Source of the DNA: Ruminococcus albus 7 = DSM 20455
GTDB lineage: Bacteria; Bacillota; Clostridia; Oscillospirales; Ruminococcaceae
Direction of reading: 5' to 3'
DNA length: 32,000 nucleotides
Assembly: GCF_000179635.2 (NCBI RefSeq)
Contig: NC_014824.1
Coordinates: 210,001 to 242,000 of the forward strand
Position 1 is the stretch's first letter. Each line of letters opens with the position of its first letter. Made by a program: the position numbers and the translations under genes. Below the pieces are notes generated by a model. That model was not told where the DNA came from, ran no database searches, and was given only the letters and a program-made list of their open reading frames with translations. Below, piece by piece: positions 4,713-31,958 of this stretch.

Positions 4713-4730
4713 TGTGTCACGCGTGACACA
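4713..4730. repeat. 18-bp palindrome family, copy 1 (perfect)
   Basis: The sequence is TGTGTCACGCGTGACACA. Its end lies 92 bp upstream of the -10 of noncoding cassette 1. Confidence 0.95.
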
Positions 4731-4798
4731 ACAAAGATACAATCTAAAATAATGGATATGCTTAAAGCTTATCTTTCATACTGTTAGAAAAATAAAGC

Positions 4799-4827
4799 TT
4801 GAAATATACCTGAATATATGCTATAAT
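4799..4827 (+). promoter_or_regulatory. promoter of noncoding cassette 1
   Basis: TTGAAA-17 nt-TATAAT, with TGC immediately upstream (extended -10). Confidence 0.75.
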
Positions 4828-4833
4828 AAGTAC

Positions 4834-5145
4834 AGTAAAATAATTTCTTTAAGAATAGTATGGCGCGAATGATAGATTCACATGATAATGCTGGTTGATT
4901 CGCACTATATTTCGGGCGACTCGGCGTCCGTAAATCGATGAAGTATTCGTAAGACCATAGCAATGTGGCTGTAACAACGCTCGATAAGGTTTAAACAATA
5001 CATATTAAATCCGTGTATTCGATTTATTTGTATGTTTTTTGCAGATGAAATCTGCACAGTACAAGTAGATTGCGAGAGTTAAGTAACAGAATTATATTCC
5101 AGTTTATTACAATTGCGAACCTAAAAAAATTATAACAGCATGGAG
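4834..5145 (+). ncRNA. candidate structured ncRNA, cassette 1 (3' end uncertain; may read through into cassette 2)
   Basis: A strong promoter is present, but there is no ORF of 60 aa or more and no RBS. The cassette is a paralog of cassette 2, with conserved blocks and conserved hairpins. Confidence 0.5.
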
Positions 5146-5163
5146 TGTGTCACGCATGACACA
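5146..5163. repeat. palindrome family, copy 2 (one central mismatch)
   Basis: The sequence is TGTGTCACGCATGACACA. It lies 64 bp upstream of the -10 of cassette 2. Confidence 0.9.
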
Positions 5164-5203
5164 ACAAAGCATCTAAAATTTATCTTTTATACTATTAGTT
5201 TTT

Positions 5204-5232
5204 TTGAATTATAGCTGCATATATGTTATAAT
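5204..5232 (+). promoter_or_regulatory. promoter of noncoding cassette 2
   Basis: TTGAAT-17 nt-TATAAT, with TGT immediately upstream (extended -10). Confidence 0.75.
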
Positions 5233-5238
5233 AAGTAC

Positions 5239-5636
5239 ATAGAATCATTTTCTCTGAATAGTGCGAAAGATAAGCTCACATTAAAACGCTGGGAAATTCG
5301 CACTTTATTTCGGGCGGCTCGGCGTCCGTAAATCGATTGAAGTATTCGTCAGTCTACAAATCTGTAGCCGAAATAACTCTCGATAGGGTTTAAACAATAC
5401 ACATTCAATCCGTGTATTCAGTTATATTTGTATATTTTTGCGGATGCAATCTGCGCAGTACAAATAGGCTGCGAGCTTATGTGAACTTGAAAGAACTGCA
5501 ATTCGGCTTGGATGCAATCTGCACAGGCAAATGAATTGCTAGAAATGAATCCGATCAGATACAACCTCTAGAACTGAATAATTCTTCTAAACAACAAAGG
5601 TCCCACCGTTTAAACTTCGGTAGGACCTCTTTTTTC
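5239..5636 (+). ncRNA. candidate structured ncRNA, cassette 2
   Basis: It is a paralog of cassette 1 and ends at a strong intrinsic terminator. It contains no credible ORF. Confidence 0.55.
5598..5636. terminator. bidirectional intrinsic terminator
   Basis: AGGTCCCACCG-loop-CGGTAGGACCT is followed by CTTTTTTC on the plus strand. On the minus strand it is followed by a T-rich run, downstream of the 516-aa gene. Confidence 0.8.
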
Positions 5637-5679
5637 TTATATTTGTATTTGACGCATAACTTTGACCATTGCCATTGGA

Positions 5680-7410: not shown

Positions 7411-7461
7411 CTTTTCAATCAGTAAGACTTCCCTTTCAAACTGTAAGATTCCATTGATTTT
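7411..7461 (+). repeat. 51-bp direct repeat, left copy, containing two 21-bp-phased half-sites
   Basis: The sequence is CTTTTCAATCAGTAAGACTTCCCTTTCAAACTGTAAGATTCCATTGATTTT. It matches 9536-9586 at 49 of 51 positions. Confidence 0.9.
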
Positions 7462-7588: not shown

Positions 7589-9244
7589 CTATATATCCGG
7601 TTTTGCGATTTCTTCTTTTGCTTTATCAACTATATCATCCGGAAAACCTATAGCGCTTAAAAGTTTTATAGCATTGCTTGAATCGTTGATACCGTTGTGT
7701 AATGTGTAATCAAACATGATGTCATCCGAGTCAATGACTTCCGAGAAATAGTAATTGGCAAAGATCTTATCAAATGCTTTTGCAAGTTCCAGATCATGGG
7801 TCGCCACCAAGAGCATACATCGTTTATCTGTAAAATAATTCAGTATCGCTTTTGAAGCTGCTATTCGTTCCCTGGTGTTAGTACCTTTAAGTATCTCGTC
7901 TATTGCAAGAAACAGCAGTCTGTCTTCTTGACAGAGCTCAATCATTCTCTTCAGATACTTTATTTCACGGATATAATAGCTTTCGCCTGATAAAATATCA
8001 TCTCTCACAGCCATTGATGTGATCACACCGCATTTGGGTACAGAAGCGCTTTCGGAAGTGCAGGTATGTATGGTCTGACCAAGAATAAGGTTTATTGCTG
8101 TGGATTTGATAAATGTGGATTTACCGGAAGCATTAGAGCCTGTGATTATTATATTGCGATCATATTCAATATCATTCGGTATCGCATTTGATATAGCAGG
8201 ATGAACTAATCCGACGAACGAAAAACTGTCATTATCTGCTGTTTTAGGAATACAGTATGTCGCCGCACTTTTTCTGTACGAAGCTATTGATACACTACAG
8301 TCTATCTCACCGATAAACTTGTATATACGCATACATTCCGACTTTTTTTCAATAAGTTCAGATATGATCTTATCGTACATGATAAAGTCGATCATGAGTG
8401 GACCGAGTAAATATGACATCATCATACTGACCTCATCTTTATTATCGGTAGCATTCTTCTGTTCGAGAAAAGTCGATCTTTTTGCGGTGTTTTTCAATGT
8501 GTTCAGATCTTCTGATATCTCATTGCTGAATTCCGGAACAAGCTCAGCCAGCGAAAATGATGTATTCAGCATTTTCCCTAAATTGAATACAGACTTTACT
8601 TTTATGTCCATTTTTTCCTTTTTTATCGTGTGGATGATCATATTTATAAGATAAACAGCTATGCACATTCCGATAAAAACTGGTTTTCTTATTATAATGG
8701 CAGCTGCTATCGATATCATAAGCAGATATGACAGCGCATAATAAAACTTACTATTTTTCAGTTTGTGCTTGGATATGTTTTCTATCAGTATCGGCATATC
8801 GTAGTTCACATACGATTTGCCTAGAAAATATAGCTTTTCCCTGACTTCGAATCTTTTGTCTTCGTTAGTACCAAAGAAAGATATTTTTTCTTCAAGCTGC
8901 TTCAGGTTGCTTTCTGTTTTTGAAAGATCATGCAGCTTTGAGTACAGACATTGCTCCCCGATATAACTGTCCGTGTGGTTAACAAGGGCAAAAATATTAT
9001 CCATGCTAAGATCTTCCCAAGTGATATCATCAACAATCTCATGTTCAGCTATACTTTTCTTGTCCATCAGATAAAGAGTTTCAATGTTGCCAAGTCTGTA
9101 GAACTGCTCCTCAGTATCATCACGAGGCACGCCAAAGGAAGATCTTATGTAGTCAAGGATACGTTTTTGCCGTTTTTTATCTTGAACGATAGTTATCACA
9201 ATAACAGTAACTATCATCAGCGATATCAATATCAAATATTCCAT
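7589..9244 (-). CDS. MutS-related ATPase (MutS domain V only) with transmembrane segments
   Basis: The 551-aa ORF has Walker A GSNASGKST, Walker B LLFLAIDEILKGTN and ATHDLELA. It has an N-terminal TM helix (LILISLMIVTVIVITIV) and central TM helices. I saw no mismatch-binding or Smr domain. Confidence 0.8.
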   Translation of the reverse strand: MEYLILISLMIVTVIVITIVQDKKRQKRILDYIRSSFGVPRDDTEEQFYRLGNIETLYLMDKKSIAEHEIVDDITWEDLSMDNIFALVNHTDSYIGEQCLYSKLHDLSKTESNLKQLEEKISFFGTNEDKRFEVREKLYFLGKSYVNYDMPILIENISKHKLKNSKFYYALSYLLMISIAAAIIIRKPVFIGMCIAVYLINMIIHTIKKEKMDIKVKSVFNLGKMLNTSFSLAELVPEFSNEISEDLNTLKNTAKRSTFLEQKNATDNKDEVSMMMSYLLGPLMIDFIMYDKIISELIEKKSECMRIYKFIGEIDCSVSIASYRKSAATYCIPKTADNDSFSFVGLVHPAISNAIPNDIEYDRNIIITGSNASGKSTFIKSTAINLILGQTIHTCTSESASVPKCGVITSMAVRDDILSGESYYIREIKYLKRMIELCQEDRLLFLAIDEILKGTNTRERIAASKAILNYFTDKRCMLLVATHDLELAKAFDKIFANYYFSEVIDSDDIMFDYTLHNGINDSSNAIKLLSAIGFPDDIVDKAKEEIAKPDI

Positions 9245-9310
9245 TTTGTTATCTCCAAATTTTGTATTATTTCTATTTCATTATAATTATAGCATATATA
9301 TTCTATTACT

Positions 9311-9342
9311 TGGTTATCCCTTTAACACACCACAAATAAAAG
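9311..9342 (+). repeat. solo copy of a putative IS terminal sequence
   Basis: TGGTTATCCCTTTAACACACCACAA matches 18269-18293 at 24 of 25 positions. The 18269 copy abuts the 3' end of a transposase remnant. Confidence 0.6.
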
Positions 9343-9535
9343 AAATAATAACATGAATAGCAAGAGGCGTATCTTTAGTGGTGAGGCGTTGCCCCTACGA
9401 AAAGATTTAGTCTCTTTTTTTACCTAAGTATTATTATATCATGCAAATTATAAAAATGCAATACCAACGTCCTGAAAGCACTCGAAAATACAAGCAGTCT
9501 CTCTTCTATTAAAGCGATCAAAGACTGTCTTTTAT

Positions 9536-9586
9536 CTTTTCAATCAGTAAGACTTCCCTTTCAATCTGTAAGATTCTATTGATTTT
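9536..9586 (+). repeat. 51-bp direct repeat, right copy, abutting a promoter
   Basis: The half-sites CAATCAGTAAGAC and CAATCTGTAAGAT start 21 bp apart (9541 and 9562). The repeat ends inside the -35 TTGATT. Confidence 0.9.
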
Positions 9587-9607
9587 CGCTTCAGAATACT
9601 GTATTAT
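9579..9607 (+). promoter_or_regulatory. promoter immediately downstream of the phased direct repeats
   Basis: TTGATT-17 nt-TATTAT. Confidence 0.6.
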
Positions 9608-9613
9608 GTAAAT

Positions 9614-9734
9614 ACGGAAAGTACTTTTCCGACCTGCCGTGCAGGGTTATGGATAAACTCCATAATGGCTCGCCTACCAGGTGTAGAAAGAGATTCTGAT
9701 TACGTCTTGCTTCGTGCAAGGCGTTTTCTGTTTT
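9614..9734 (+). ncRNA. candidate small RNA or leader of about 120 nt
   Basis: Three consecutive hairpins (CGGAAAG/TTTTCCG, CCTGC/GCAGG, TTATGGA/TCCATAA) are followed by an intrinsic terminator. There is no ORF. Confidence 0.45.
9702..9734 (+). terminator. intrinsic terminator
   Basis: ACGTCTTGC-TTCGT-GCAAGGCGT is followed by TTTCTGTTTT. Confidence 0.75.
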
Positions 9735-9927
9735 ATACGGTTTTTACCATTCCTAATTTTCTAGTATAATTAAAATGCAGATTTGATTGATAATTGGGAG
9801 ATCAGATCAAGTTTAAATTACAGGAGGATAGAGCAATGACCAAAGCTTTTACGTATTTCTAAATAACTCTCCATGATTTCAAGTTCCAAACACAAAAATA
9901 ATCATGAAAAAACTCAAGGAGGATAAA

Positions 9928-10446: not shown

Positions 10447-10449
10447 TAA

Positions 10450-10740: not shown

Positions 10741-10763
10741 CGTTAATTAGCTTTACTTGTTCA

Positions 10764-10796
10764 GCCACCGGTATTTTTTATGCCGGTGGCTTTTTT
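10764..10796 (+). terminator. intrinsic terminator
   Basis: GCCACCGG-loop-CCGGTGGC is followed by TTTTTT. Confidence 0.85.
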
Positions 10797-10813
10797 GTGT
10801 CACGCGTGACACA
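10796..10813. repeat. palindrome family, copy 3 (perfect)
   Basis: TGTGTCACGCGTGACACA lies directly after the terminator T-run, between convergent genes. Confidence 0.95.
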
Positions 10814-11397: not shown

Positions 11398-11426
11398 ATT
11401 ATAGCACCACATCACTTTATTGTCAA
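11398..11426 (-). promoter_or_regulatory. consensus promoter of the DUF3592-like gene
   Basis: The minus strand reads TTGACA-17 nt-TATAAT with a TGC extended -10. Confidence 0.8.
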
Positions 11427-11597
11427 TATAAACGCCATAGTACTTCTGACTTTGCTTCTCTTATTGGCAAAAGAATAATTATGGTAACGGTAATTATATT
11501 ATAACACAAATCAAAAAGCTTAGCTCCCATGTTTTCGAGGTTGCTAAGCTCTTTTTCTTTCTGATGTATAATTATTTTTCTTTCTGTCGATATGCGA

Positions 11598-11626
11598 TTG
11601 ACTTTTTTGGGGCGGTGATGTATAAT
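11598..11626 (+). promoter_or_regulatory. promoter of the ankyrin-repeat gene
   Basis: TTGACT-17 nt-TATAAT. Confidence 0.75.
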
Positions 11627-11689
11627 TACCAATAAGAGCAGGCACTTGGTATGTTTGAAAATATTAAAACTATATGGAGAGCAGAGACA

Positions 11690-12388
11690 ATGAATGTATT
11701 ATTCAAGGAAATTCGGCAAGGAAATATCGAAAATATAAGAGAACGAATTGAAAAAAATCCTGCCGTTGTAAATGAGGTATTCACTGGAAAAAAACCATTG
11801 AAAGATATAGGACAATCACCATTGCAGGTTGCTTTGAAATGCGCTGAATTTGATATTATAGACTTGTTGCTCAATAATGGTGCTGATCCGGATTTCATAG
11901 AAAACCCCTCACAAGTTCCACCGGGTAGTATGTGTTGTCCTGTAATATCAGATGCAATTAAATATGCAATGGATACCTTGCTGTATACTGGTACAAAACA
12001 CATTGAACAATCCTTACGATATGTAGGGATCATTGAACGATTGCTTGTGTTAGGAGCAGATCCGAACAAAAAAAGAATTGATAAGAATCCAATCAACAAC
12101 TGGCAGCCACTTGGAGTACTGGCTGCAGGAGGAAATTATATTTTGAAGCGGACAAGGAGCGATGATCCGGAGGCATATTGCATAGCAAATAAAAACATCA
12201 TTACTATCCTTGATTTGTTGATAAAGTATGGAGCAGATGTTGAGGATTGGCTTGATAACGGCGTATGGGGAGACGAATCCAATCGAAAAGCTTATCTCGA
12301 TGATTTTGAAATTAAAGACGAAGTTGATTTTAATCGAGAGATTCGCACCATTTTTCAAGAATATTTTAACAGACAAACTAATACTTGA
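11690..12388 (+). CDS. ankyrin-repeat protein
   Basis: Repeats such as SPLQVALKCAEFDIIDLLLNNGADPD, LLVLGADPNKK and LIKYGADVEDW are present. I prefer the ATG at 11690 (GGAGAG RBS) to the track start at 11651, which has no RBS. Confidence 0.8.
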   Translation: MNVLFKEIRQGNIENIRERIEKNPAVVNEVFTGKKPLKDIGQSPLQVALKCAEFDIIDLLLNNGADPDFIENPSQVPPGSMCCPVISDAIKYAMDTLLYTGTKHIEQSLRYVGIIERLLVLGADPNKKRIDKNPINNWQPLGVLAAGGNYILKRTRSDDPEAYCIANKNIITILDLLIKYGADVEDWLDNGVWGDESNRKAYLDDFEIKDEVDFNREIRTIFQEYFNRQTNT

Positions 12389-12392
12389 TATA

Positions 12393-12427
12393 CAGCAAGG
12401 AGAAATCGCTCTCCTTGCTGATTTTTT
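12393..12427 (+). terminator. intrinsic terminator
   Basis: CAGCAAGGAG-loop-CTCCTTGCTG is followed by ATTTTTT. Confidence 0.85.
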
Positions 12428-12702
12428 ATTCAAGCTGATTTTTTCCTTTTGGCAGACTGTTCGTTCTGTAAGTTTATACCAAAATAATGACCGTTTCGTT
12501 AAGCATAACCACTGAAATATTTCAGTATTGATAATGATATGCAGTGCTTCGCGGCAAAAAACCCTCCATATATCTACTGACGTCTTCGGGCTTTTGGCGG
12601 TACTTTCTGAAAAGTATACAGTTTGTTCAAGGCAGTTCTCCCTCCTGCATAATTTCAACTGCGAATTTTTATATAATATGCGAACAGAATGTATATCAGC
12701 GG

Positions 12703-12731
12703 TTGCTTTTTCAAGGAAGATGTGGTATAAT
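12703..12731 (+). promoter_or_regulatory. promoter of the SUKH gene
   Basis: TTGCTT-17 nt-TATAAT preceded by TGG. Confidence 0.65.
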
Positions 12732-12775
12732 TTGTGGGTAAGATTAACTTTGATAATGTAATTCGAGGTAGCTCT

Positions 12776-13375
12776 ATGAACGATAAAGAATTATTCACTC
12801 GCATATCCGAAGTGGAAAACAGATTGAACATAACAATTCCTAAAGTCTATAAGGATTTTTTACTTAAACACGATGGTATGGAGTTTGATGATGGAATACT
12901 ATACGGTATTGAAGAAATAGAGGACAGATATCTAACTTTTGAATTTAATAAATATGCTCCTGAATTGATTCCTATTGGCAATGACAATGGAGACTATGAG
13001 CTTGTAATGAAATCAGGAAACCAGATTAAAAGGTTTGGTATTGTCGAGCAAGGCTCGGTAGGTTCGCTTGAACCGGAACATTTTCATAATTTTACCCAGT
13101 GGTATAATAGCGGTCACTCTTTTGAGTTTGAAACTGGAACAAGCAATATCGACGGGTCAAAAAGAGTGAAGGTTGTATTAAAAAAGTGTCCGACCGATAA
13201 ATCAAGAACGATAATGAAGATCAGAAAAGCATTGCGTCTTGAATTGCCAATTACCGAATTACTTCGTGCTGCTAATAATGCTCCGGTTGTTCTTACCGAG
13301 TCACTTACCTTTGCAGTGGCAAAAAAGCTTATTGCAGAAAACTCACTTGATGAATGGCTGGATATAAAATCATGA
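12776..13375 (+). CDS. SMI1/KNR4 (SUKH) family protein with a C-terminal L7/L12-CTD-like domain
   Basis: A SUKH-like N-terminal region is present (IPKVYKDFLLKHDGMEF...IPIGNDNGDYELVM). The tail VKVVLKKCPTDKSRTIMKIRKALRLELPITELLRAANNAPVVL follows the L7/L12 C-terminal domain pattern. I use the ATG at 12776 (GAGGT RBS) because the track GTG at 12734 lies at the predicted TSS. Confidence 0.7.
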   Translation: MNDKELFTRISEVENRLNITIPKVYKDFLLKHDGMEFDDGILYGIEEIEDRYLTFEFNKYAPELIPIGNDNGDYELVMKSGNQIKRFGIVEQGSVGSLEPEHFHNFTQWYNSGHSFEFETGTSNIDGSKRVKVVLKKCPTDKSRTIMKIRKALRLELPITELLRAANNAPVVLTESLTFAVAKKLIAENSLDEWLDIKS

Positions 13376-13420
13376 AAGATGGCCATAAACTTCTAAACAA
13401 ATATTTCTGAATAATCTCAT

Positions 13421-13460
13421 AAGCTGTGGAGCATATAAGCTTCGCAGCTTTTTTGTTTTT
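13421..13460 (+). terminator. probable terminator
   Basis: Nested AAGCT(G)/(C)AGCTT stems are followed by TTTTGTTTTT. Confidence 0.55.
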
Positions 13461-13747
13461 CCCCATAAAATCTTGACGAATGAAAAAGTCTTATGGCGCA
13501 CTCAACTTCTTGCTCAATGCGAATAGACTTTTTATCCCTAAGTGCGCTATAATTTTAGTATGAGTTCGGGCATTCGGCTCCGCAATAAAATATAGAATGG
13601 TGGTGATAATATGGTAAGCATTTCTTTTTCGTACTGCTGTATGTGTGTGGCACTTTGGTTGATATTGATAATGGTGTTCTTCTTAATCTGCATGAAGACA
13701 ATAAGCTGACGACTATGCAAAAAGCGATTAAAAATAACCCCATTATA

Positions 13748-13765
13748 TGTGTCACGCGTGACACA
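13748..13765. repeat. palindrome family, copy 4 (perfect)
   Basis: TGTGTCACGCGTGACACA lies 27 bp upstream of a TATAAT at 13792-13797. Confidence 0.95.
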
Positions 13766-13902
13766 AACTTTAAAATCAGCTCCGCGTTCGATATAATGTT
13801 ATTACCCACGAGTCAGCTTTTATCTCGACAAAATGTTAAAATTATCAGCGTATTAATGGCAGTTGCTATCTTTTCTTTTTGTCGGTTCCCATAAAAAAAG
13901 AA

Positions 13903-13940
13903 AAGGCAAGCCCTCAAAATTTGCAGGGTCTTGCCTTTTG
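13903..13940. terminator. bidirectional terminator
   Basis: AAGGCAAGCCCT...AGGGTCTTGCCTT is flanked by an A-run and a T-run. It lies downstream of the zinc-ribbon membrane gene. Confidence 0.8.
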
Positions 13941-13965
13941 ATAATAATTTCTGCCGATTGCCGAC

Positions 13966-14775
13966 TCATCTTTGTTGATTTAAAGATCTTTCAGCCGTGA
14001 AGGTCTTCACGCTAGAGAAGAACGCGATTATTATTGTTATGAAGCATATAACAAAACCGAACTTTACGTTCACCTTCAGATATTCCTTTATTTCACTCAG
14101 GTCTGTTTTGCTATTTGTTATGTAGCGCTTGTAAAAATCGGTATTGAATATTATCAGACTTGCAAGCGCGATGACCGCACAGGTTGCTGATGCAAGCGGT
14201 AATATTTTTATTTTCTTTATAAACAGCAACATCATCCCCAAAATGCAGCAGAGCAGCGTTACTAACAACCACGGGTTCGCATCTTCTTTGTTGCCGTAGT
14301 CTTTGTAACTGGGAAGTATAAAATTCTTTCTAAGTTCTTCTACATTTTCGTTTTTCTTGACGTTTTTATCGCTTATAGTTGTCGGGCAAATGATATTGTA
14401 GCCTGAGTATATGACCTCGGTATTGTATTTATCGCCACTGCCGGTTATCGTTGAGGTATCGCATGAAACCGACATGAACGGAAAAAAGAAGCATACGATA
14501 GCAAGCAAAAAAGCGATTTTTGCTATAAACCTTGAGTGTATCCTGTTGCCTTTATACGCTGCGTCAGATATGTCTTCCGTAACTGGAACTGCTTGTACAG
14601 TCGAGTAAGATTCTGACTGATAGCTATCAGCCCCGTGTCTGCCAAAGAATTTTTCATCTAATAAAGCTTTATCTTCCGTGAAAAAGCTGTCATCATCGTC
14701 ATCTGTTACCGCACCGCACTGTATACAGAATGTCGAACCGTCAGGGTTTTTGCTTCCGCATATTGGACATATCAT
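13966..14775 (-). CDS. zinc-ribbon domain membrane protein
   Basis: The N-terminus reads MICPICGSKNPDGSTFCIQCGA, followed by several hydrophobic helices. A GAGGAGG RBS and a TGATATAAT -10 are present. Confidence 0.85.
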   Translation of the reverse strand: MICPICGSKNPDGSTFCIQCGAVTDDDDDSFFTEDKALLDEKFFGRHGADSYQSESYSTVQAVPVTEDISDAAYKGNRIHSRFIAKIAFLLAIVCFFFPFMSVSCDTSTITGSGDKYNTEVIYSGYNIICPTTISDKNVKKNENVEELRKNFILPSYKDYGNKEDANPWLLVTLLCCILGMMLLFIKKIKILPLASATCAVIALASLIIFNTDFYKRYITNSKTDLSEIKEYLKVNVKFGFVICFITIIIAFFSSVKTFTAERSLNQQR

Positions 14776-14865
14776 GATATTGCCTCCTCAATATATTTTT
14801 TCTGATTATATCATACTTTTTAATACAAATAAAAATACATCAATTAATCTTAAAGCTGTTCAGTA

Positions 14866-16152
14866 TTATTTAGCCGTTTTGATTCCTTTCTGTATCTCAT
14901 TGGCACGTTCTTCACTTATACCGCATTTTTCTGCATAGCTGAGCCATTTACCTACAACAACTTCAGTCTCGGATAATACCTTACGGCAGAACCCTTGTGA
15001 CAGCCCCATAGACTTTCCACTTGCTACAAGATCTTCTGCTGTTATTCCCGAGGTTTTTCCGTTTACTGACATCTGATGTTTTGATATCCATTTGTTATCG
15101 GGATTATAAGCGAATGTTAGATCGTATGCCGGAGAAAGCGCCCATTTGCCTTTACGATCCATCAAAAATGAGAAGTTCTTGACGTGGTCATCACAGTTTC
15201 CACCAAACACTGCAAACACTATACGTCTGAGGATCTGCTCTATCCCGCTTTTGCCAATACCAAGTCTCTTTGCAAGATCGGCATATAATTCATAACTGCA
15301 AATATTCGGTGTGTTATAATCAAAATGTCCCAACGCTGCAAGAGTCTGCATATGTATTTTGTCACCATTTGCACGATCAAAACGTTTTGTCATGAAATGA
15401 TGTAATCCGTCCTTTTTATATATACGACACTCGTTCATGTCGATCCCCAGATCTTTTGCCATAAGATAATAAGCGTATTCGATAAGTGAATATTGTTTTT
15501 TATCGGCTAAATTGTGGTCGCCGTTGCCAGATACTCCATCAAACTTGATAAGCCAGTAGTCAAAACCTTTCCCCGTTTCTATCTGTCCTGATCTGACTTC
15601 GCCGGTATCTTCATTCCACGCAATTATAGCTTTTGCTCTTGCACCGCCTGCCGAAGAACCTATCTCCATCAGCTGCATTATGCTTGCATCCTTGTCTGAC
15701 AAAACAGCACTCTCTTTACCTGACAGTATCTCAGATGCAAGTTGAGTCATCTCTGTTACATCGACGTTGCTGTTTAGAATTTCGGGACCTGCTGCAGGGA
15801 CATACTCAAGTGCGCCCATTCCGCGTTTTCCGGTGTAACACAGTCTCTCTATTGCTGTAAACGATTCGGGAGAACGACCCTGACCTGCAAGCCATTTGTT
15901 TATAACCGCATTACCAAATTTATCAGGCAAGGAGTCGGCAAATAATCCCGGGATTCCATGAAATGCCTCTATACGACTGAGTTCGGGGAAGGAGTATATT
16001 CGATCAGATAAAGGCATTCTGAACGGAGACAGTTCTATCCCACTGTTAAGGAACTTTCTATCGTATTCAAAACTCGCAGCAACATCATTTTCGCCTTGAT
16101 GAATGTATCCTATACGAGTTCCCCAGAGAAATACTTCTGCGGTAGTTATCAT
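14866..16152 (-). CDS. hipA: HipA-family serine/threonine kinase toxin (type II TA)
   Basis: The 428-aa ORF has an N-terminal coupling domain and a C-terminal DDHVKNFSFLM...LSPAYDL kinase core. It overlaps the upstream HTH gene by 4 nt. Confidence 0.9.
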   Translation of the reverse strand: MITTAEVFLWGTRIGYIHQGENDVAASFEYDRKFLNSGIELSPFRMPLSDRIYSFPELSRIEAFHGIPGLFADSLPDKFGNAVINKWLAGQGRSPESFTAIERLCYTGKRGMGALEYVPAAGPEILNSNVDVTEMTQLASEILSGKESAVLSDKDASIMQLMEIGSSAGGARAKAIIAWNEDTGEVRSGQIETGKGFDYWLIKFDGVSGNGDHNLADKKQYSLIEYAYYLMAKDLGIDMNECRIYKKDGLHHFMTKRFDRANGDKIHMQTLAALGHFDYNTPNICSYELYADLAKRLGIGKSGIEQILRRIVFAVFGGNCDDHVKNFSFLMDRKGKWALSPAYDLTFAYNPDNKWISKHQMSVNGKTSGITAEDLVASGKSMGLSQGFCRKVLSETEVVVGKWLSYAEKCGISEERANEIQKGIKTAK

Positions 16153-18244: not shown

Positions 18245-18268
18245 AAATTAATCTTTCATTTAGAATTA

Positions 18269-18506: not shown

Positions 18507-18526
18507 ATCTTTTAGGAGGAATAATA

Positions 18527-18673
18527 ATGGATATTAATGAGTTTGCTTATAGTTGGAGATTTACAGAAGATGATAGAGCTCTTTTTTCAGAATCTGCTGT
18601 CTCAAATAGCAATTTCTATGATGACTTTAAAAAATGGCAGCGTGAAAGCTGGAGAGAGATTTTTGGAAACTAA
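18527..18673 (+). CDS. hypothetical 48-aa protein
   Basis: This ORF is below the track length cutoff. An AGGAGGA RBS lies about 7 nt upstream of the ATG. Its stop is 2 nt before the ATG of the next gene. My hand translation gives MDINEFAYSWRFTEDDRALF... Confidence 0.55.
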   Translation: MDINEFAYSWRFTEDDRALFSESAVSNSNFYDDFKKWQRESWREIFGN

Positions 18674-18675
18674 AA

Positions 18676-27374: not shown

Positions 27375-27415
27375 TTTAACAGCGCCTTTATTATCATACA
27401 TCCTTTGAGGAAAGA

Positions 27416-27445
27416 CAGCTAAGTGTAAAAGCTTAGCTGCCTTTT
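27416..27445 (+). terminator. intrinsic terminator
   Basis: CAGCTAAG-loop-CTTAGCTG is followed by CCTTTTC. Confidence 0.75.
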
Positions 27446-27477: not shown

Positions 27478-27495
27478 TGTGTCACGCGTGACACA
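27478..27495. repeat. palindrome family, copy 6 (perfect)
   Basis: TGTGTCACGCGTGACACA lies 33 bp after the adhesin terminator and 49 bp before a TATAAT at 27544-27549. Confidence 0.95.
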
Positions 27496-27697
27496 AAATA
27501 AATTCTATTTTTATTTTTCATTTTACTTAACTGAATTTTCTACTATAATACAAAAGGCAAGTATTTTAATATCTATTAGCAAAACTTCCCTGCCGCTTCT
27601 ACACAGTGGAACATCCTTAAAGAAAAGTCAGCTAAGTGTAAATCTTATCCGTATATTTCCGCCTTTGTCCTTATAAGGATAAGAAGCCTTTTTAATT

Positions 27698-27715
27698 TGT
27701 GTCACGTGTGACACA
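27698..27715. repeat. palindrome family, copy 7 (one central mismatch)
   Basis: The sequence is TGTGTCACGTGTGACACA. Confidence 0.9.
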
Positions 27716-27899
27716 GCAAAAGCACCTGGATTTAATTGTAACCTATAATGGTATTGCAGGTAGATAAAGCATTTAAGACTCCCCTGCTTTGAATTTTAAT
27801 AGTGCCAATTGAAGGTCAAAGGCTTTAATTCACTGGATTTCACATAGAGTATGTCACGGGTGTCACACTTGATACACAGGGACTGAGAACATTTCTCGG

Positions 27900-27941
27900 G
27901 TGGATTTTATCCGTTAATTGAGTGGATTTCATCCGTTAATT
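27900..27941 (+). repeat. iteron-like pair, unit 1
   Basis: GTGGATTTTATCCGTTAATT and GTGGATTTCATCCGTTAATT start 22 bp apart. Each contains the mini-palindrome GGAT-NNN-ATCC. Confidence 0.85.
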
Positions 27942-27982
27942 CAAAATCGAAACTAACAGAGATTCTGCGTTTCAGATTAGTT

Positions 27983-28000
27983 TGTGTCACGCGTGACACA
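27983..28000. repeat. palindrome family, copy 8 (perfect)
   Basis: The sequence is TGTGTCACGCGTGACACA. Confidence 0.95.
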
Positions 28001-28184
28001 GTAAAAGTGCATAGATTTCATTTGCCCCAATAATGGTTATGCAGGTAAATAAAGAATTTAAGACTCCCCTGCTTTGGATTTTAATGGTACCAATTGAAGA
28101 TCAAAGGCTTTAATTCACTGGATTTCACATAGAGTATGTCACGGTTGTCACACTTGATACACAGGGACTGAGAACATTTCTCGG

Positions 28185-28226
28185 GTGGATTTTATCCGTT
28201 AATTGAGTGGATTTCATCCGTTAATT
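28185..28226 (+). repeat. iteron-like pair, unit 2
   Basis: It has the same two 20-mers as 27900-27941, shifted by 285 bp. Confidence 0.85.
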
Positions 28227-28267
28227 CAAAATCGAAACTAACAGAGATTCTGCGTTTCAGATTAGTT

Positions 28268-28285
28268 TGTGTCACGCGTGACACA
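28268..28285. repeat. palindrome family, copy 9 (perfect)
   Basis: The sequence is TGTGTCACGCGTGACACA. Confidence 0.95.
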
Positions 28286-28469
28286 GTAAAAGTGCATAGA
28301 TTTCATTTGCCCCAATAATGGTTATGCAGGTAAATAAAGAATTTAAGACTCCCCTGCTTTGGATTTTAATGGTACCAATTGAAGATCAAAGGCTTTAATT
28401 CACTGGATTTCACATAGAGTATGTCACGGGTGTCACACTTGATACACAGGGACTGAGAACATTTCTCGG

Positions 28470-28511
28470 GTGGATTTTATCCGTTAATTGAGTGGATTTC
28501 ATCCGTTAATT
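28470..28511 (+). repeat. iteron-like pair, unit 3
   Basis: It has the same two 20-mers, shifted by 570 bp. Confidence 0.85.
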
Positions 28512-28552
28512 CAAAATCGAAACTAACAGAGATTCTGCGTTTCAAATTAGTT

Positions 28553-28570
28553 TGTGTCACGCGTGACACA
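28553..28570. repeat. palindrome family, copy 10 (perfect)
   Basis: TGTGTCACGCGTGACACA lies 68 bp upstream of the -10 of the 390-aa operon. Confidence 0.95.
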
Positions 28571-28614
28571 GTAAGTTCAATTACATAATTGCAAATACTA
28601 TTTTCCCTTTTTCT

Positions 28615-28707: not shown

Positions 28708-29880
28708 ATGGGACAAAGATCACAAATGTACATTAAATTTGAATCTGAAAAAGAAAAAATACTGATAGCAAATTATTATCAATGGAATTATGGAGAAAGA
28801 ATGATTTCCAGAGCAAAATATGTTATTGAGTATATTAAAAATGCTTACGATACATTTTACAAAGAGGGCAATTTTCACTTTTGGTATGAAAATAAAGATA
28901 CTATCAGAAAACTAAAAAGACTGCTCGATGTAAATTTTGATATGCAGGATATAGTGTTGAGTCAGGATATTATTGAAGAATTCAAGGAAGAAGCTGATGA
29001 TAACTGTAAGTTCAATGATTATGTATTCTACGGTCAGGATAACAATGACGGTCAGTTCTACCTGTACGTGATGAATAATGGTTCTCTTAAGTATACTTTC
29101 ACAGATTATAATTGCAATGATCGTCTGACTGCGCATCAGTATATGGAAGACTATAATGCTGAAGATAGGGAAATCTGCGAAGAAAATACAACTTATATAG
29201 AAGAAAATGCTCAGCTTTTGTCAAATTCCGAATGGGCTGAATTTCTCGACGATAATTATTCTTCACTATATAAAAGGAGATCCACTCCGGCGGAAGAAGC
29301 AGTGTTCAAACTTTCAATGCTATGGGGCGATTATCTGAGATCAAAAAAATCCTACAAAGGCATATTATACAGCGATTTTCTTTCTAAAATTCCTGACGAT
29401 AAAGCGGCAAATATAATAAGAAATAAATCTCGTTGGTGTAATGAAAGCTCGGATATAAACAAGCTCTTTCAGGAAATGGCAGAGGAACTTATCGACGAAT
29501 CCTTTGAAATCGATATTCTAAAGGAAGTTGAGTTGTGTGATGTCTGCAAGCCATCAATAGAGCCATTGAAGTTTGCATCTGGTCTCACATCTAAAACACC
29601 GGCCGAACAGCTTATACTGTATAATAAGCTTCTTAAAAAGACAAGCAGCTCTGCAAATAGAAAGATAATAACCGATACAAGCGAATGTGCTGTTCTGTTT
29701 TCTATCGACAGCAGAGGAAATCCTCTTATAACACTTAAATTGTACGGAGAAAAATTCGGAAAATTAAAGGGAAAACCTGAAATGGTCGAGTTAACACCTT
29801 TCGAACGTTATGAGTTATACGATCTGGCAAATGAGTATTGTAAGAATCACTATAGTATGTCATTGCCTTCAAGGTGTTAA
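28708..29880 (+). CDS. hypothetical 390-aa protein
   Basis: ORF-track ORF with an AGGAGGA RBS. It is the first gene after the tandem array. I recognised no motif. Confidence 0.8.
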   Translation: MGQRSQMYIKFESEKEKILIANYYQWNYGERMISRAKYVIEYIKNAYDTFYKEGNFHFWYENKDTIRKLKRLLDVNFDMQDIVLSQDIIEEFKEEADDNCKFNDYVFYGQDNNDGQFYLYVMNNGSLKYTFTDYNCNDRLTAHQYMEDYNAEDREICEENTTYIEENAQLLSNSEWAEFLDDNYSSLYKRRSTPAEEAVFKLSMLWGDYLRSKKSYKGILYSDFLSKIPDDKAANIIRNKSRWCNESSDINKLFQEMAEELIDESFEIDILKEVELCDVCKPSIEPLKFASGLTSKTPAEQLILYNKLLKKTSSSANRKIITDTSECAVLFSIDSRGNPLITLKLYGEKFGKLKGKPEMVELTPFERYELYDLANEYCKNHYSMSLPSRC

Positions 29881-29894
29881 AAAGGAGAATGGCT

Positions 29895-30149
29895 ATGGGA
29901 AATACACGTAATACAAGAGCCTACTATAGGCGTGTGAGAAGTAAAAATATCGAACGTAAAAAGAAATTATATAATATTGTATATCATTGTAACTATGAAA
30001 AGCCTGAAGGAAAACTGAGTAAAGGAAAAGTTCACTGCAGCTGCCCTTGGTGCGCTTTCAGCGGACTGACTTATAGAAGAATAAAACGCGGCACAGCCAT
30101 GGATTATTCTGAGAAACACTACGAAGAATATTTCGACGACGTAGTATAA
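29895..30149 (+). CDS. small basic protein with a Cys/His cluster (possible zinc-binding)
   Basis: I prefer the ATG at 29895 (AAGGAG RBS 7 nt upstream) to the track GTG at 29874. The protein is Arg/Lys-rich and contains HCSCPWC. Confidence 0.65.
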   Translation: MGNTRNTRAYYRRVRSKNIERKKKLYNIVYHCNYEKPEGKLSKGKVHCSCPWCAFSGLTYRRIKRGTAMDYSEKHYEEYFDDVV

Positions 30150-30163
30150 TTGGAGGACAAATC

Positions 30164-31249
30164 ATGTTTGAACTGAATTTCGATGAACTGGATATGCTTT
30201 CACCTTTCGAAAAATTCAAAGACAAAATAACAAGATCAGATCTTAAGCCGGAAAGCAAGATCTTGCTGATGACTCATAACGATCTTGACGGTTCCGGACC
30301 AGCAGTGCTGCTTAAAAGCATTTTTGTAAAAACAGACGTTATTCACTGTTCTAATAATAATATGGATCGTGAGATAATGAATTCTATGTATATGGCAAAT
30401 AAATATGATGCGGTTTTCATTACAGACATATCCTGTACGAAAGAAACTGCAGAAAAGATAAATGAACACTATAATAGGAAGAAGCTTTATCTGCTTGATC
30501 ACCACAGAACAGCTGAGTATCTTAATGAGTATGACTGGGCATTTGTTCTGTCAGAACACATCAAAGAATCTTTCATTGATGAATATTATAAGGAACCCAT
30601 TGGAAAGCCTTCCGCAACTTCAATAACCTTCGACTTTTTGAAGTACTATGGGCTTACGAAGTATATCAAGAACCTTTCTCTTGCTAAAGAACTTGCTTTC
30701 ATGATAAGTGCTTATGATTCTTGGGATTGGGTAAATGTTTTTGAAAAAGATCCAAAGTTTCTGGATCTGAACACTGTATTCTGGATCTACCAGCCGGAAA
30801 TATTCGACAACATCTTTTCAAAAAAGATATCTGAAGAAGGAGCAAGGATTCTCGATAAAAGAGAAAACTTTGTACTTATGCTGGAAAAAGGAAGAAACGA
30901 AAACTATATCAACTCCAAAAGAGAGTCATTCAAAAAGTGTGTACTTACAATAGATGATGTTTCTTACAAGGCAATTTATTGTTTTGCAGACTCTCACACC
31001 CCGGAACTTTTTGAAGTAATGAAAACTGATTTCCCGGAAGGAGACATTGCAATCATAAATACAGGTTCCAAATTATCCTTCCGTTCCATAGACAATGATA
31101 TCAATGTTGAAAAGCTTGCGAGAAAGCTTGGAGGCGGCGGACATATCAATGCAAGTGGTGTTCATGTTTCTTCTGAGCTTCAGAAAGAATATATGGAAAA
31201 GCTTCTTACAGGAACTATTGAAAAATATAATCAGTCCGCTAATTCATGA
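30164..31249 (+). CDS. DHH/DHHA1-family phosphoesterase (NrnA-like)
   Basis: The motifs THNDLDGSG, LLDHHRT and GGGGHINASG are present. A GGAGGA RBS is present. Confidence 0.85.
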   Translation: MFELNFDELDMLSPFEKFKDKITRSDLKPESKILLMTHNDLDGSGPAVLLKSIFVKTDVIHCSNNNMDREIMNSMYMANKYDAVFITDISCTKETAEKINEHYNRKKLYLLDHHRTAEYLNEYDWAFVLSEHIKESFIDEYYKEPIGKPSATSITFDFLKYYGLTKYIKNLSLAKELAFMISAYDSWDWVNVFEKDPKFLDLNTVFWIYQPEIFDNIFSKKISEEGARILDKRENFVLMLEKGRNENYINSKRESFKKCVLTIDDVSYKAIYCFADSHTPELFEVMKTDFPEGDIAIINTGSKLSFRSIDNDINVEKLARKLGGGGHINASGVHVSSELQKEYMEKLLTGTIEKYNQSANS

Positions 31250-31280
31250 ATGGAACGTCCTGATAAACTATATTTCAGAT

Positions 31281-31308
31281 TAGAGTGTGACACGCGTGAC
31301 ACACTCTA
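31281..31308. repeat. palindrome family, copy 11 (extended 28-bp variant with one mismatched pair)
   Basis: The sequence is TAGAGTGTGACACGCGTGACACACTCTA. It lies 32 bp after the DHH stop and 72 bp before the next -10. Its left flank TTTCAGATTAG matches the array units. Confidence 0.9.
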
Positions 31309-31379
31309 ATACCAAAAATGCGATCAAATTATTAAAGTAATTTACAGTGGAATCTTTTTTATCTATTCCAATTTCCTTG

Positions 31380-31385
31380 TATAAT
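31380..31385 (+). promoter_or_regulatory. -10 element of the last gene
   Basis: TATAAT is preceded by TG, within AATTTCCTTGTATAAT. Confidence 0.5.
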
Positions 31386-31466
31386 TATATTAGTAGTAAC
31401 TACTGATAATTGGAGTCTGTTTCCGAATGCAGATGTTCCAAAATAAATTATACGAGGTGTAATCGA

Positions 31467-31901
31467 ATGGATAAAGTAACGAAGCAAAAAATAAAACACA
31501 CGCTGAGGAAAAACGGGCTAACTATTTTTTTAGGAATCTCTGTAATATTACTAATAATCATCGCGTTAATGAATGTCAGCGTAAAAAAAGAGAAGATCAA
31601 AAAAGAAAAAGTAGCAAGCAATATTTATTATGGCTGCATCAAGACAGAACATGAAGAAAAAGTTCTGGTGATCACCCAGGCGAATTATTTCATCGAAAAT
31701 GAATGCCTTGATGATGGCAGCGGAGAAAAATATAAAGAACTAAATACAATACTATACAAAAGCGGACTCAAACAATATTCAGAAGGGAAATACTCTTTAA
31801 CAGAAGAAATGAATGAGTCTGACTTAGTTCAGATATTAACTGAGAACAATATGGTTTTGGATTTCAAAAACAAGGAATATAATGATTTCTGCAACAGATA
31901 A
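31467..31901 (+). CDS. hypothetical single-pass membrane protein (144 aa)
   Basis: I prefer the ATG at 31467 (GAGGTG RBS) to the track TTG at 31410. The TM helix reads LTIFLGISVILLIIIALMNV. Confidence 0.7.
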   Translation: MDKVTKQKIKHTLRKNGLTIFLGISVILLIIIALMNVSVKKEKIKKEKVASNIYYGCIKTEHEEKVLVITQANYFIENECLDDGSGEKYKELNTILYKSGLKQYSEGKYSLTEEMNESDLVQILTENNMVLDFKNKEYNDFCNR

Positions 31902-31911
31902 TTCAGAAGAA

Positions 31912-31939
31912 AAGCTCATCGATAGATGGGCTTTTTTTA
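31912..31939 (+). terminator. intrinsic terminator
   Basis: AGCTCATC-GATA-GATGGGCT is followed by TTTTTTT. Confidence 0.85.
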
Positions 31940-31940
31940 T

Positions 31941-31958
31941 TGTGTCACGCGTGACACA
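31941..31958. repeat. palindrome family, copy 12 (perfect)
   Basis: TGTGTCACGCGTGACACA lies directly after the terminator T-run. Confidence 0.95.

Follow-up and report, generated by a model that had tools for sequence, protein, structure and literature searches.

The 420,706 bp replicon of Ruminococcus albus 7 carries an 18 bp palindrome, TGTGTCACGCGTGACACA (24 bp with its flanks), which is probably a parS-type site of the plasmid's own partition protein, the ParB ADU23900 encoded in one operon with the ParA ADU23899. The assignment draws on how the palindrome co-occurs with ParB, where it is placed and how its half-site resembles parS. Over the sampled stretch of the replicon, spanning parAB to repB, members of the palindrome family number at least 40: three at the promoters of parAB and an adjoining repressor gene, 12 good and three degenerate copies in the analysed window, and 24 in a 5 kb array. 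With dozens of copies lying between the partition genes and the replication gene, the arrangement would be an undescribed variant of a well-known plasmid-inheritance system.

Copies of the palindrome in the window

The window, that is the whole 32 kb stretch of DNA that was analysed, encodes proteins ADU23913-ADU23938. On the same replicon, parA and parB are found about 17 kb to the left of the window; repB (ADU23941), which encodes the Rep_3 initiator, is about 6 kb to the right. Sequencing runs containing the window also hold ParB and RepB, and the window's assembly also holds RepB.

Within the window there are eight exact, four one-mismatch and three degenerate copies of the palindrome. A scan for TGTGTCACGCGTGACACA allowing up to three mismatches returned 14 matches, with a mean of 0.02 in 100 shuffles. 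All 15 copies are intergenic, as an earlier note on this DNA had stated of the copies known to it, in a window with a coding fraction of 0.75-0.77. The 12 copies listed in that note are real and comprise the exact and one-mismatch classes, yet the degenerate copies at 27850, 28135 and 28420 had been missed. The perfect 16-mer core that it placed at 16735 is right, as the copy at 16734 deviates at its first base only. A further copy, given there as starting at 31281, is present, but the 18-mer itself starts at 31286 and 31281 is approximately the start of a 30 bp extended palindrome. The copies, which carry no strand assignment, are as follows.

4713-4730, exact; divergent promoter-like sites on both sides, with the -35 of the 4799-4827 promoter 69 bp downstream
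5146-5163, one mismatch (G11A); opens the second copy of a tandem duplication of about 400 bp
10796-10813, exact; directly 3' of the T-run of the terminator at 10763-10791, with convergent genes on either side
13748-13765, exact; convergent gene ends on either side, kept in relative L057
16734-16751, one mismatch (first base); 80 bp beyond the 3' end of an AAA_14 gene, with hipB 246 bp downstream
27478-27495, exact; 39 bp past the terminator of a SpaA/TED surface-protein gene, kept in the 80%-identical relative L039
27698-27715, one mismatch (C10T); within a tandem array
27850-27867, degenerate (TATGTCACGGGTGTCACA), three mismatches, direct-repeat type
27983-28000, exact; within the tandem array
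28135-28152, degenerate (TATGTCACGGTTGTCACA)
28268-28285, exact; within the tandem array
28420-28437, degenerate, three mismatches
28553-28570, exact; end of the array, with the gene at 28708 beginning 137 bp downstream
31286-31303, one mismatch; centre of the 30 bp extended palindrome TTAGAG...CTCTAA, with a left flank that is a decayed array unit (repeat family D3)
31941-31958, exact; directly 3' of a terminator T-run, opening a large array that runs to repB

The parAB operon and its ParB protein

In R. albus 7 the parA promoter is bracketed by two exact palindromes, 121 bp apart at about -60 and +55. The proximal site falls between the -10 and the RBS, and the other is upstream of the promoter. 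A third site is found upstream of an S24-repressor gene adjoining parAB. R. albus AD2013 and one MAG contain the same two parA sites and the third before the S24-repressor gene, with further copies nearby; the P0121 clade is the only one in which parAB has an HTH-Peptidase_S24 repressor gene as neighbour. No palindrome site was present in approximately 21 kb next to parB, a point against the parS reading. ParB bound at the two flanking sites would repress its own operon, and autoregulation of parAB is probable from this arrangement.

ParA (domains AAA_31, CbiA, ParA and MipZ) is a Walker-type ATPase whose gene is directly upstream of parB in L082, L083, L089-L092, L043, L033 and L059. In Pfam searches ParB has a ParB_N domain (E = 1.4e-15) and an HTH_ParB domain, and its best solved relatives are the chromosomal Spo0J/ParB/Noc proteins (PDB 1vz0 Spo0J, E = 8e-15). 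A domain of ParB_N type (CTPase fold) with GxxR, an HTH domain and a companion ParA ATPase are the protein components of a ParABS system. The GxxR P-motif is kept as GHHR, with G101, H103 and R104 invariant. Box II reads GHHR instead of GERR and ENLQR has become SNIQR, so clamp or CTPase behaviour may differ. A Pfam KorB domain match was obtained in one relative at E = 3.5e-4, below the cut-off.

The half-site TGTGTCAC equals the canonical parS half-site TGTTNCAC at seven of eight positions, and the palindrome has two extra central bases compared with the canonical chromosomal parS of 16 bp; the earlier note had made this comparison correctly. We propose that ParB dimers load on the palindromes with one HTH per TGTGTCAC half-site, and that loaded ParB would build an origin-proximal partition complex which ParA segregates. 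The two extra central bases may render the plasmid system orthogonal to a chromosomal one.

Distribution of the palindrome among relatives

Among 185,579 representative genomes, no more than 18 stretches contain the exact 18-mer, which is clustered in Ruminococcus. Ruminococcus sp. Marseille-P6503 contains five copies in two 8 kb stretches, one of which carries parB. When loci were collected by motif, four of the 39 low-GC loci, which together cover 270 kb, had parAB, each time with a palindrome no further than about 30 bp from the stop of parB or the start of parA. The ParB proteins of these loci are 30–38% identical to that of R. albus 7, excepting L033 (83%), and 35–38% identical to that of L043; three further ParB lineages (30–38% identical) have the same 18-mer within about 30 bp of their parAB operon. 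In its core the earlier proposal is upheld, namely a network of binding sites for a dimeric DNA-binding protein whose gene is not in the window and for which a ParB/KorB-like protein came first among the candidates. The earlier note had suggested looking on the same replicon for a ParB-family gene that co-occurs with the motif, and ADU23900 fits this description: its operon promoter is bracketed by exact copies, and the palindrome tracks ParB into distant relatives. Because all of the loci are related Ruminococcus-type mobile elements, part of this co-occurrence could be shared ancestry.

Searches starting from ParB gave palindromes of the TGTGTCAC half-site in six of the seven clades sampled. 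The parAB-operon clade has a 2 bp spacer (the 18-mer), while five conjugative-element clades have a 1 bp spacer, giving the 17 bp TGTGTCAC-S-GTGACACA. None of the sampled loci mixed 17-mer and 18-mer, and the 16 bp canonical parS was not found in these loci. P0091 is the sole sampled ParB clade without sites, and it has K177T in an otherwise conserved recognition helix. In the sister 17-mer elements, whole operons are dotted with such sites, 13–15 per 21 kb, each lying after a stop codon and before the RBS that follows.

Conservation of the palindrome points to selection on its sequence. Across 11 array units it is 100% conserved and the remaining sequence averages 72% pairwise identity, and it is kept at orthologous positions in the 80%-identical relative.

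Placement relative to genes, promoters and terminators

Palindromes occupy 7 of the 18 intergenic regions of at least 40 bp in the window. No copy is present across 18.1-27.4 kb (six genes) or in the divergent promoter regions 9245-9903, 11416-11650 and 18143-18675, and two copies (10796 and 13748) are located between convergent genes. The palindrome is therefore not a marker of every transcription unit; the boundary role claimed for it earlier is not general, and the stereotyped architecture described with it was overstated. Of the placements reported then, the abutment of 10796 and 31941 on terminator T-runs is correct. Promoter-like -10/-35 pairs are found downstream of the copies at 4713, 5146, 13748 and 27478, at variable spacing. 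Three window copies are just past intrinsic terminators, where little transcription is expected, which argues for action of the palindrome at the DNA level. Its restriction to intergenic DNA may arise because coding sequence would not tolerate a perfect 18-mer, rather than from a function in defining transcription units.

An alternative that overlaps with the parS reading is that global silencing in the manner of KorB is the main job, with ParB sliding or acting as a roadblock from dispersed sites to repress accessory and defence genes and rep, and partition being secondary. The bracketed parA promoter and the site preceding the S24-repressor gene would suit such a role, as would the several window copies located 27–70 bp upstream of good promoters, and the stop-to-RBS placement of the 17-mers is unexplained by partition. 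KorB sets a precedent, as this clamp of the ParB family represses from sites at a distance (PMC11790492). We nevertheless consider silencing as the main job rather unlikely, given that 11 of the 18 intergenic regions, divergent promoter regions among them, have no site, that convergent gene pairs do have sites, that the distance from site to promoter is not fixed, and that no KorA-like partner was identified. Under the preferred parS reading, effects of the palindrome on neighbouring promoters and on Rep-iteron interactions are possible.

Iteron arrays leading to repB

The arrays and iterons in the right part of the window are as follows.

27692-28574, plus strand, tandem array of 3.1 units of 285 bp, homologous to the arrays that precede the Rep_3 genes of L054 and L101-L104
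27900-27943, plus strand, pair of 22 bp iterons, GTGGATTT(T/C)ATCCGTTAATT(G/C)A, with the same pairs at 28185-28228 and 28470-28513
31969-32000, plus strand, iteron-like repeats GTGGATTACGTCCGTTAATTAG and then GTGGATTTT..., the start of the oriV-proximal array, cut by the window end

Each 285 bp unit is a pair of 152 and 133 bp containing one good and one degenerate palindrome, two 22 bp iterons and further iteron-like motifs. The iterons immediately before the Rep_3 gene of L101 have exactly this 22 bp consensus; iterons of this consensus are upstream of rep in both L101 and L104, and RepB ADU23941 of R. albus 7 belongs to the same 90% cluster. L054 has Rep3_N/Rep3_C domains and nine 22 bp iterons in tandem. 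A Rep_3 initiator gene with tandem 22 bp direct repeats upstream is the arrangement of an iteron origin, the R. albus 7 rep gene itself being outside the window. The units at 27.7-28.6 kb are origin-type arrays in which palindromes alternate with 22 bp Rep_3 iterons. The "noncoding units" that the earlier note had described here and at the right end are not transcription units but iteron and palindrome arrays leading to repB.

Beyond the window the array continues for at least 5 kb to repB, with 24 more palindrome-family copies and about 70 iteron-like matches. The left half is invariant in 24 of these 24 copies, whereas the right half, diverged in many of them, is GTGACACA, GTGTCACA or GTGACACG, a combination unexpected for a symmetric dimer site. 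Site density and iteron alternation exceed the needs of partition alone, which we counted against the partition reading.

A wider role can be put forward tentatively, and we regard it as rather unlikely: this ParB lineage of Firmicutes might be a joint hub of partition, replication control and gene silencing. ParB loaded at array sites that alternate one by one with Rep_3 iterons over several kb would gate initiator handcuffing and copy number, intergenic sites (at nearly every cistron pair in the sister conjugative elements) would act as roadblock or silencer, and the half-site spacing (16, 17 or 18 bp around one shared half-site) would serve as an orthogonality code for co-resident replicons.

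It is quite improbable that the palindrome is instead a part of the replication origin or its control, as a target of Rep_3, of an accessory Rep protein or of a host factor, ParB being a mere neighbour. Such a role would fit the densest palindrome clusters, which alternate with Rep_3 iterons immediately before the rep genes of L054 and L101-L104; in those arrays invariance is confined to the left half-site and its flank. However, perfect copies adjoin parAB in L009, L033, L043 and L059, and 17-mers are abundant in the conjugative-element loci L095-L100, with no Rep_3 gene found in either group; dispersed copies tens of kb from rep still have both halves perfect, and the half-site resembles parS and not the iteron.

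Mosaic boundaries and repeat-type explanations

At the 16734 copy, synteny with L057 and L052 breaks off precisely at the palindrome edge, and between L095 and L097 many homology blocks end 0–16 bp from palindrome edges with differing gene content. Such breaks, and a small serine recombinase (ADU23913) on the same contig, could indicate that palindromes are crossover sites at which a site-specific recombinase exchanges gene cassettes. This option, also raised earlier, draws indirect support from the homology breaks, yet we judge it highly unlikely: no recombinase is a constant neighbour (some loci have tyrosine integrases, others have resolvases, and several have neither), a perfectly symmetric site confers no directionality, and mosaic boundaries at short conserved sequences are also an expected by-product of any conserved protein-binding site.

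Least probable by our estimate is an RNA-level or selfish element, either an intercistronic hairpin or a REP/MITE-like repeat: perfect self-complementarity, strictly intergenic location, the stop-to-RBS position in sister elements and the existence of a symmetric double variant (TCTGTCACGCGTGACAGA) would agree with one, but copies lie past terminators and one parA site is upstream of its promoter, the sequence itself, beyond its pairing, is invariant among relatives whose proteins are 30% identical, neither RAYT nor IS200-type genes were seen, and the motif is rare and clustered, not genome-wide. REP/RAYT repeats consist of hundreds of imperfect palindromes genome-wide with a RAYT (IS200-like) gene; the 18 stretches recovered, with no Y1 transposase in any locus, led us to reject this class. 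Integron attC sites are imperfect palindromes of 57–141 bp with R/L boxes and an adjoining intI integrase, and were rejected on account of the perfect 18 bp palindrome, the lack of intI and the mixed gene orientations.

Comparison with known systems

Chromosomal-type ParABS systems with origin-proximal parS clusters include Spo0J/Soj of Bacillus subtilis and the multi-parS systems of Corynebacterium, Myxococcus and Vibrio cholerae chromosome 2. The R. albus system is like these in that a small Walker ParA immediately precedes a ParB whose domains are ParB_N and HTH, in its palindromic site with the half-site likeness described above, and in the many sites near the replication origin and par operon. 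It differs in its longer site, in the number of copies, all intergenic and 24 of them alternating with Rep_3 iterons over more than 5 kb, in the GHHR of Box II, and in residing on a 420 kb plasmid.

Iterons and centromeres are combined in P1 incA/parS, F incC/sopC and the ParB2-RctB crosstalk of V. cholerae chromosome 2, and in V. cholerae ParB influences iteron-based replication control. Those regions likewise have iteron arrays outside the minimal origin side by side with centromere repeats. In R. albus, unlike these, a single tandem array interleaves both kinds of site, unit after unit, and we know of no described example of this.

In cluster A mycobacteriophages the immunity repressor binds stoperators, asymmetric sites whose orientation follows that of transcription. 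Both systems place dozens of identical short sites in the small gaps between genes of a mobile element, a likeness that is greatest for the 17-mer sister system; stoperators were rejected as the R. albus sites are symmetric and have a ParB-family protein as constant partner rather than a CI-type repressor.

With RK2 KorB and its OB sites the R. albus system shares a ParB-family protein and many dispersed plasmid palindromes, some at promoters including that of its own operon (PMC11790492; PMC13584720). The phosphate motif of KorB, GARRYR, departs from GERR (PMC11790492; PMC13584720), as does that of the R. albus ParB. Differences are that no KorA- or TrbA-like clamp-locking partner was identified, that site-promoter spacing is not stereotyped, that R. 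albus sites are also found between convergent genes and within iteron arrays, and that the host is a Firmicute, sequence kinship to KorB being at family level only. The Streptomyces plasmid SCP2 has an 18 bp inverted-repeat parS, bound by ParT, in which half-site spacing matters for clamp behaviour (PMC12260392). An 18 bp inverted-repeat site on a plasmid is common to both; however, ParT is without a CTPase domain and has a single parS within its own gene (PMC12260392), whereas the R. albus ParB has a ParB_N domain with GxxR and dozens of sites.

Biological significance

In the R. albus megaplasmid family, the palindromes indicate where the centromere probably lies, along with the maintenance region near the origin. 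Plasmids of this family carry hydrogenase, dockerin and defence genes in a host that is a key rumen fibre degrader. Together with canonical parS, the sites form a natural series with one shared half-site and a varying spacer (16 bp canonical, 17 bp and 18 bp), in which every length goes with a ParB clade of its own, and the control of ParB clamp loading by half-site geometry and the orthogonality of co-resident replicons thereby become directly testable. To our knowledge, the coupling of segregation to copy control and gene silencing by ParB-family proteins has so far been worked out mainly for RK2 KorB; the way in which ParB sites and iterons alternate, and the 17-mers placed between cistrons, suggest that such coupling also operates in Gram-positive mobile elements.

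Palindrome copies within the window

The palindrome TGTGTCACGCGTGACACA is found in the window as eight exact copies and four copies with one mismatch, and three additional degenerate copies are located at 27850, 28135 and 28420. Dinucleotide-preserving shuffles of the window gave an expectation of 0.02 matches. All copies are intergenic, though approximately 76% of the window is coding. Pooling all loci gives an approximate extended consensus of (A/G)AG-TGTGTCACGCGTGACACA-CT(C/T). The copy coordinates in the earlier note were correct save for small offsets at 16734 (given as 16735) and 31286 (given as 31281), and copies 10796 and 31941 do abut the T-runs of terminators as was stated there. The proposal that the palindromes mark the boundaries of transcription units did not hold in general: sites are present in only 7 of 18 intergenic regions, three divergent promoter regions have no site, and copies 10796 and 13748 fall between convergent genes. 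A regular order of palindrome and promoter had also been suggested; this was dropped because promoter-like sites show no overall enrichment in the window (61 found, 49 expected). Strong intrinsic terminators directly precede three palindrome copies, which argues for action at the level of DNA and not RNA.

The terminator region of the SpaA gene (27398-27429) is partly duplicated 213 bp downstream at 27611-27642 with 88% identity, framing a short promoter-plus-terminator unit between palindromes 27478 and 27698.

Association with parAB

Open reading frames of loci containing the 18-mer were clustered to find shared proteins. Operons of parA and parB were found in four of these loci (L009, L033, L043 and L059), each with a palindrome no more than about 30 bp from the parB stop or the parA start. 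The ParBs of the 18-mer loci are 35-38% identical to that of L043 and 30-38% identical to the R. albus 7 ParB, except for the L033 ParB at 83%. By profile search the ParB family is large in Ruminococcus, and one cluster includes ADU23900.1, which is the R. albus 7 ParB. The binding protein had been predicted to lie outside the window, possibly as a ParB/KorB-like protein, and ADU23900.1 is indeed a ParB-family gene on the same 420,706-bp replicon; it shares sequencing runs with the window genes. Accession order and contig overlaps place parAB approximately 16-18 kb to the left of window position 1, and no palindrome is present in the approximately 21 kb from parB to the first window copy.

In strain 7 the parA promoter is bracketed by two exact palindromes 121 bp apart, and the proximal one separates an extended -10 (TGcTATAAT) from the ribosome-binding site of parA. 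An HTH-Peptidase_S24 gene adjoins parAB, and its promoter has a third palindrome about 100 bp upstream. The same layout is found in R. albus AD2013 and in a MAG, with five and six copies, respectively.

ParB_N and HTH_ParB domains are present in these ParBs; among solved structures, the chromosomal Spo0J/ParB/Noc proteins are the closest relatives. Box II reads GHHR, which is compatible with the general P-motif GxxR (PMC12704722); KorB also departs from GERR, having GARRYR (PMC11790492). The half-site of the palindrome differs from that of canonical parS, the chromosomal docking site of ParB, at one of eight positions. Allowing up to two mismatches, the canonical 16-bp parS was found neither in the window nor in any par locus.

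The S24 protein was considered as the palindrome-binding protein and rejected, since of the four ParB lineages with the 18-mer three lack it. This LexA/CI-like gene with its own upstream palindrome immediately precedes parAB in L090 (8335-8961), L082, L083 and L033, an arrangement confined to the ParB clade of R. albus plasmids.

Origin-proximal arrays and iterons

The stretch at 27692-28574 is a 285-bp tandem repeat, made up of a 152 + 133 bp pair, which is homologous to arrays with 153-bp units on the metagenome contigs L039 and L054. Conservation of the palindrome across 11 L039/L054 units is 100%, against an average pairwise identity of 72% for the remaining sequence. Every unit contains a second motif of about 22 bp, and in L054 nine copies of this motif stand in perfect 22-bp tandem beside a Rep_3 gene (Rep3_N/Rep3_C) and an AT-rich stretch, an iteron origin of the classical type. 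Three further contigs (L101-L103) are headed by P0184, a 56%-identical Rep, and the 22-bp repeat of the window matches their iteron consensus GTGGATTTCATCCGTTAATTGA exactly. Upstream of rep they hold 3-17 palindrome-family copies, contigs L102 and L103 ending early.

The 90% cluster of P0184 includes ADU23941.1, an R. albus 7 protein annotated as "initiator RepB"; it is encoded on the 420,706-bp replicon, three accession numbers past the DHH gene of the window. Scaffold KK211255.1 (L104) belongs to GCA_000621285.1, the assembly that carries the window proteins on contig JHYT01000044.1. Here the array upstream of rep is at least 5.2 kb long (an assembly gap lies inside it) and contains 24 palindrome-family copies, five of them exact, along with approximately 70 iteron-like 22-mers that almost all point the same way. 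Each of the 24 palindrome copies keeps the left half TGTGTCAC unchanged. The window arrays align many times to the L104 array. The rep gene is thus located just outside the window, the window spans the DNA between parAB and oriV/repB, and the array at its right end is where the origin-proximal array starts. What had been described as noncoding units at 27.7-28.6 kb are accordingly Rep_3 iteron/palindrome arrays and not transcription units.

Four genes at 28708-31901 lie inside the array region, and this arrangement is kept in L039. The 390-aa gene at 28708 was rejected as an initiator, having no Pfam, NCBIfam or PHROG match and no similarity to the L054 Rep.

Many array copies (L104 87-5157, L101 133-3040) either follow a direct-repeat pattern (TGTGTCAC-GC-GTGTCACA) or carry a right half that has diverged, as do the degenerate window copies at 27850, 28135 and 28420. 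Neither their left half nor its TTAGTT flank varies, which is unexpected for a symmetric dimer site. Genes for type II topoisomerase subunits follow rep directly (L104 7515-9497; L101 5462-7444 and 8893-11082; L054 1947-3929); they are GyrB-like and, in L101-L103, also GyrA/topoisomerase-IV-like, with a sigma-70-family gene after them in L101-L103.

Spacer length and ParB clade

Loci were also sampled starting from five other ParB clades (P0062, P0041, P0022, P0061 and P0080), and these have a sibling 17-mer with a 1-bp spacer. Identity to ADU23900 is about 50% for the ParBs of P0062, P0041 and P0022. NikA and/or a relaxase, ParA and, in three of them, SSB are encoded in the P0062, P0041, P0061 and P0080 loci, identifying these as conjugative elements. 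The 18-mer is absent from the loci of all five sampled clades, which have 3-15 copies of TGTGTCAC-(C/G)-GTGACACA in fetched stretches no longer than about 21 kb. Nearly every 17-mer occupies the few bases from a stop codon to the next ribosome-binding site. Across all fetched loci the spacer is uniform within a locus, either 2 bp or 1 bp and never mixed, and spacers of 0, 3 or 4 bp were not found. Clade P0091 lacks any related palindrome, and no other clade is substituted at a conserved position of the HTH recognition helix as it is (K177T).

Conjugative elements with the 17-mer and a ParB about 50% identical to that of the plasmid (L095 4003-15640; L097 4627-17310; L100; L099; L088) have 13-15 copies per 21 kb, nearly all of the sites lying within co-directional operons. 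Blocks of homology between elements end at these sites.

Distribution of the 18-mer

The exact 18-mer is scarce, occurring in 18 stretches of representative genomes and 51 metagenome stretches. Low-GC loci are Ruminococcus-type contigs, often with multiple copies. The exact 18-mer was not found in IMG/VR; the 17-mer was found there in 15 viral-predicted stretches, only one with ParB inside the fetched DNA. PLSDB contained no close relative of the array, the parA promoter region or ParB (best ParB identity below 35%).

High-GC matches (Bacteroidaceae MAG, L037/L051 satellites, Acidobacteria and others) were set aside as unrelated repeat families sharing the 18-mer by chance. These families, including 350-bp satellites and clusters of differing palindromes, are found in L037 and L051 (GC 53%), L008, L012 and L018 (Bacteroidaceae MAG), and L020 and L044 (GC 65-70%). 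Because they hold an identical or near-identical 18-mer, the bare sequence evidently arises in other contexts too. Separately, an array on contig ERZ780218 NODE-378 (L064 1038-2692) mixes TGTGTCACGCGTGACACA with TCTGTCACGCGTGACAGA, a symmetric double variant in which positions 2 and 17 have both changed, possibly reflecting a second binding specificity within a single element.

Gene content and mosaic boundaries

The window proteins are ADU23913-ADU23938 of Ruminococcus albus 7 (ATCC 27210 / DSM 20455), on the 420,706-bp replicon, which we take to be the megaplasmid pRumal01. The genes of the window are accessory or defence-like: HD, MutS_V ATPase, ankyrin, SUKH, HipAB, AAA_14/DUF4143, NYN, a surface protein of TED-SpaA type and a DHH phosphoesterase. 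Strain 7 is documented as carrying a plasmid of the name pRumal01 (PMC4081043, PMC10838669). Other features of the window are:

2830-2912, minus strand: c-di-GMP-I riboswitch (70.7 bits)
1125-2756, continuing in L025 at 11639-16188: leftward operon led by the riboswitch
4790-5145 and 5195-5560: tandem promoter plus conserved noncoding element of about 240 nt, two copies
7589-9244: MutS_V-ATPase gene
7411-7461 and 9536-9586: 51-bp direct repeats flanking that gene, 96% identical

The riboswitch was the only Rfam match over the window, with none to the palindromes or noncoding units. Its operon encodes three proteins, one of 543 aa (dynamin-family in UniRef), a HerA/FtsK-like ATPase of 1000 aa and one of 515 aa, and resembles a defence-type module controlled by c-di-GMP. 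The 240-nt element has homologues in L062, L063, L071 and L073 (a single copy in L073), GATGCAATCTGCACAG... repeats in its 3' part, and a predicted multi-stem fold with five compensatory pairs among four sequences (RNAalifold); with no Rfam match, it may be an undescribed small RNA. Since L073 lacks exactly the segment between the 51-bp repeats, repeat-mediated insertion or deletion is indicated, independent of the palindromes.

Homology between relatives often stops at palindrome edges, so the sites coincide with mosaic boundaries. Because no recombinase is a constant neighbour, we read this coincidence as a by-product of short conserved sequences that DNA with no other relationship has in common.

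Interpretation

ParABS, KorB-type regulation and iteron origins are each already known. A literature search for the 18-mer and 17-mer sequences found no paper containing either. We believe that three features have not been described before: an 18-bp site and 17-bp sibling built on a common parS-like half-site, a very large number of copies (at least 40 over the roughly 70 kb sampled), and the unit-by-unit alternation of palindromes with Rep_3 iterons.

Location, copy number, conservation, co-occurrence, covariation of spacer with ParB clade, and iteron identity are matters of observation. The best-supported reading of these sequences is that the palindromes would form a cluster of parS-type sites for the plasmid's own ParB near the origin, with autoregulation of parAB; concentration near the origin is shared with the parS sites of chromosomes and secondary replicons. 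ParB would bind the palindromes, leading to clamp loading and then partition, and would also act as a repressor, while spacer length would give orthogonality to chromosomal parS.
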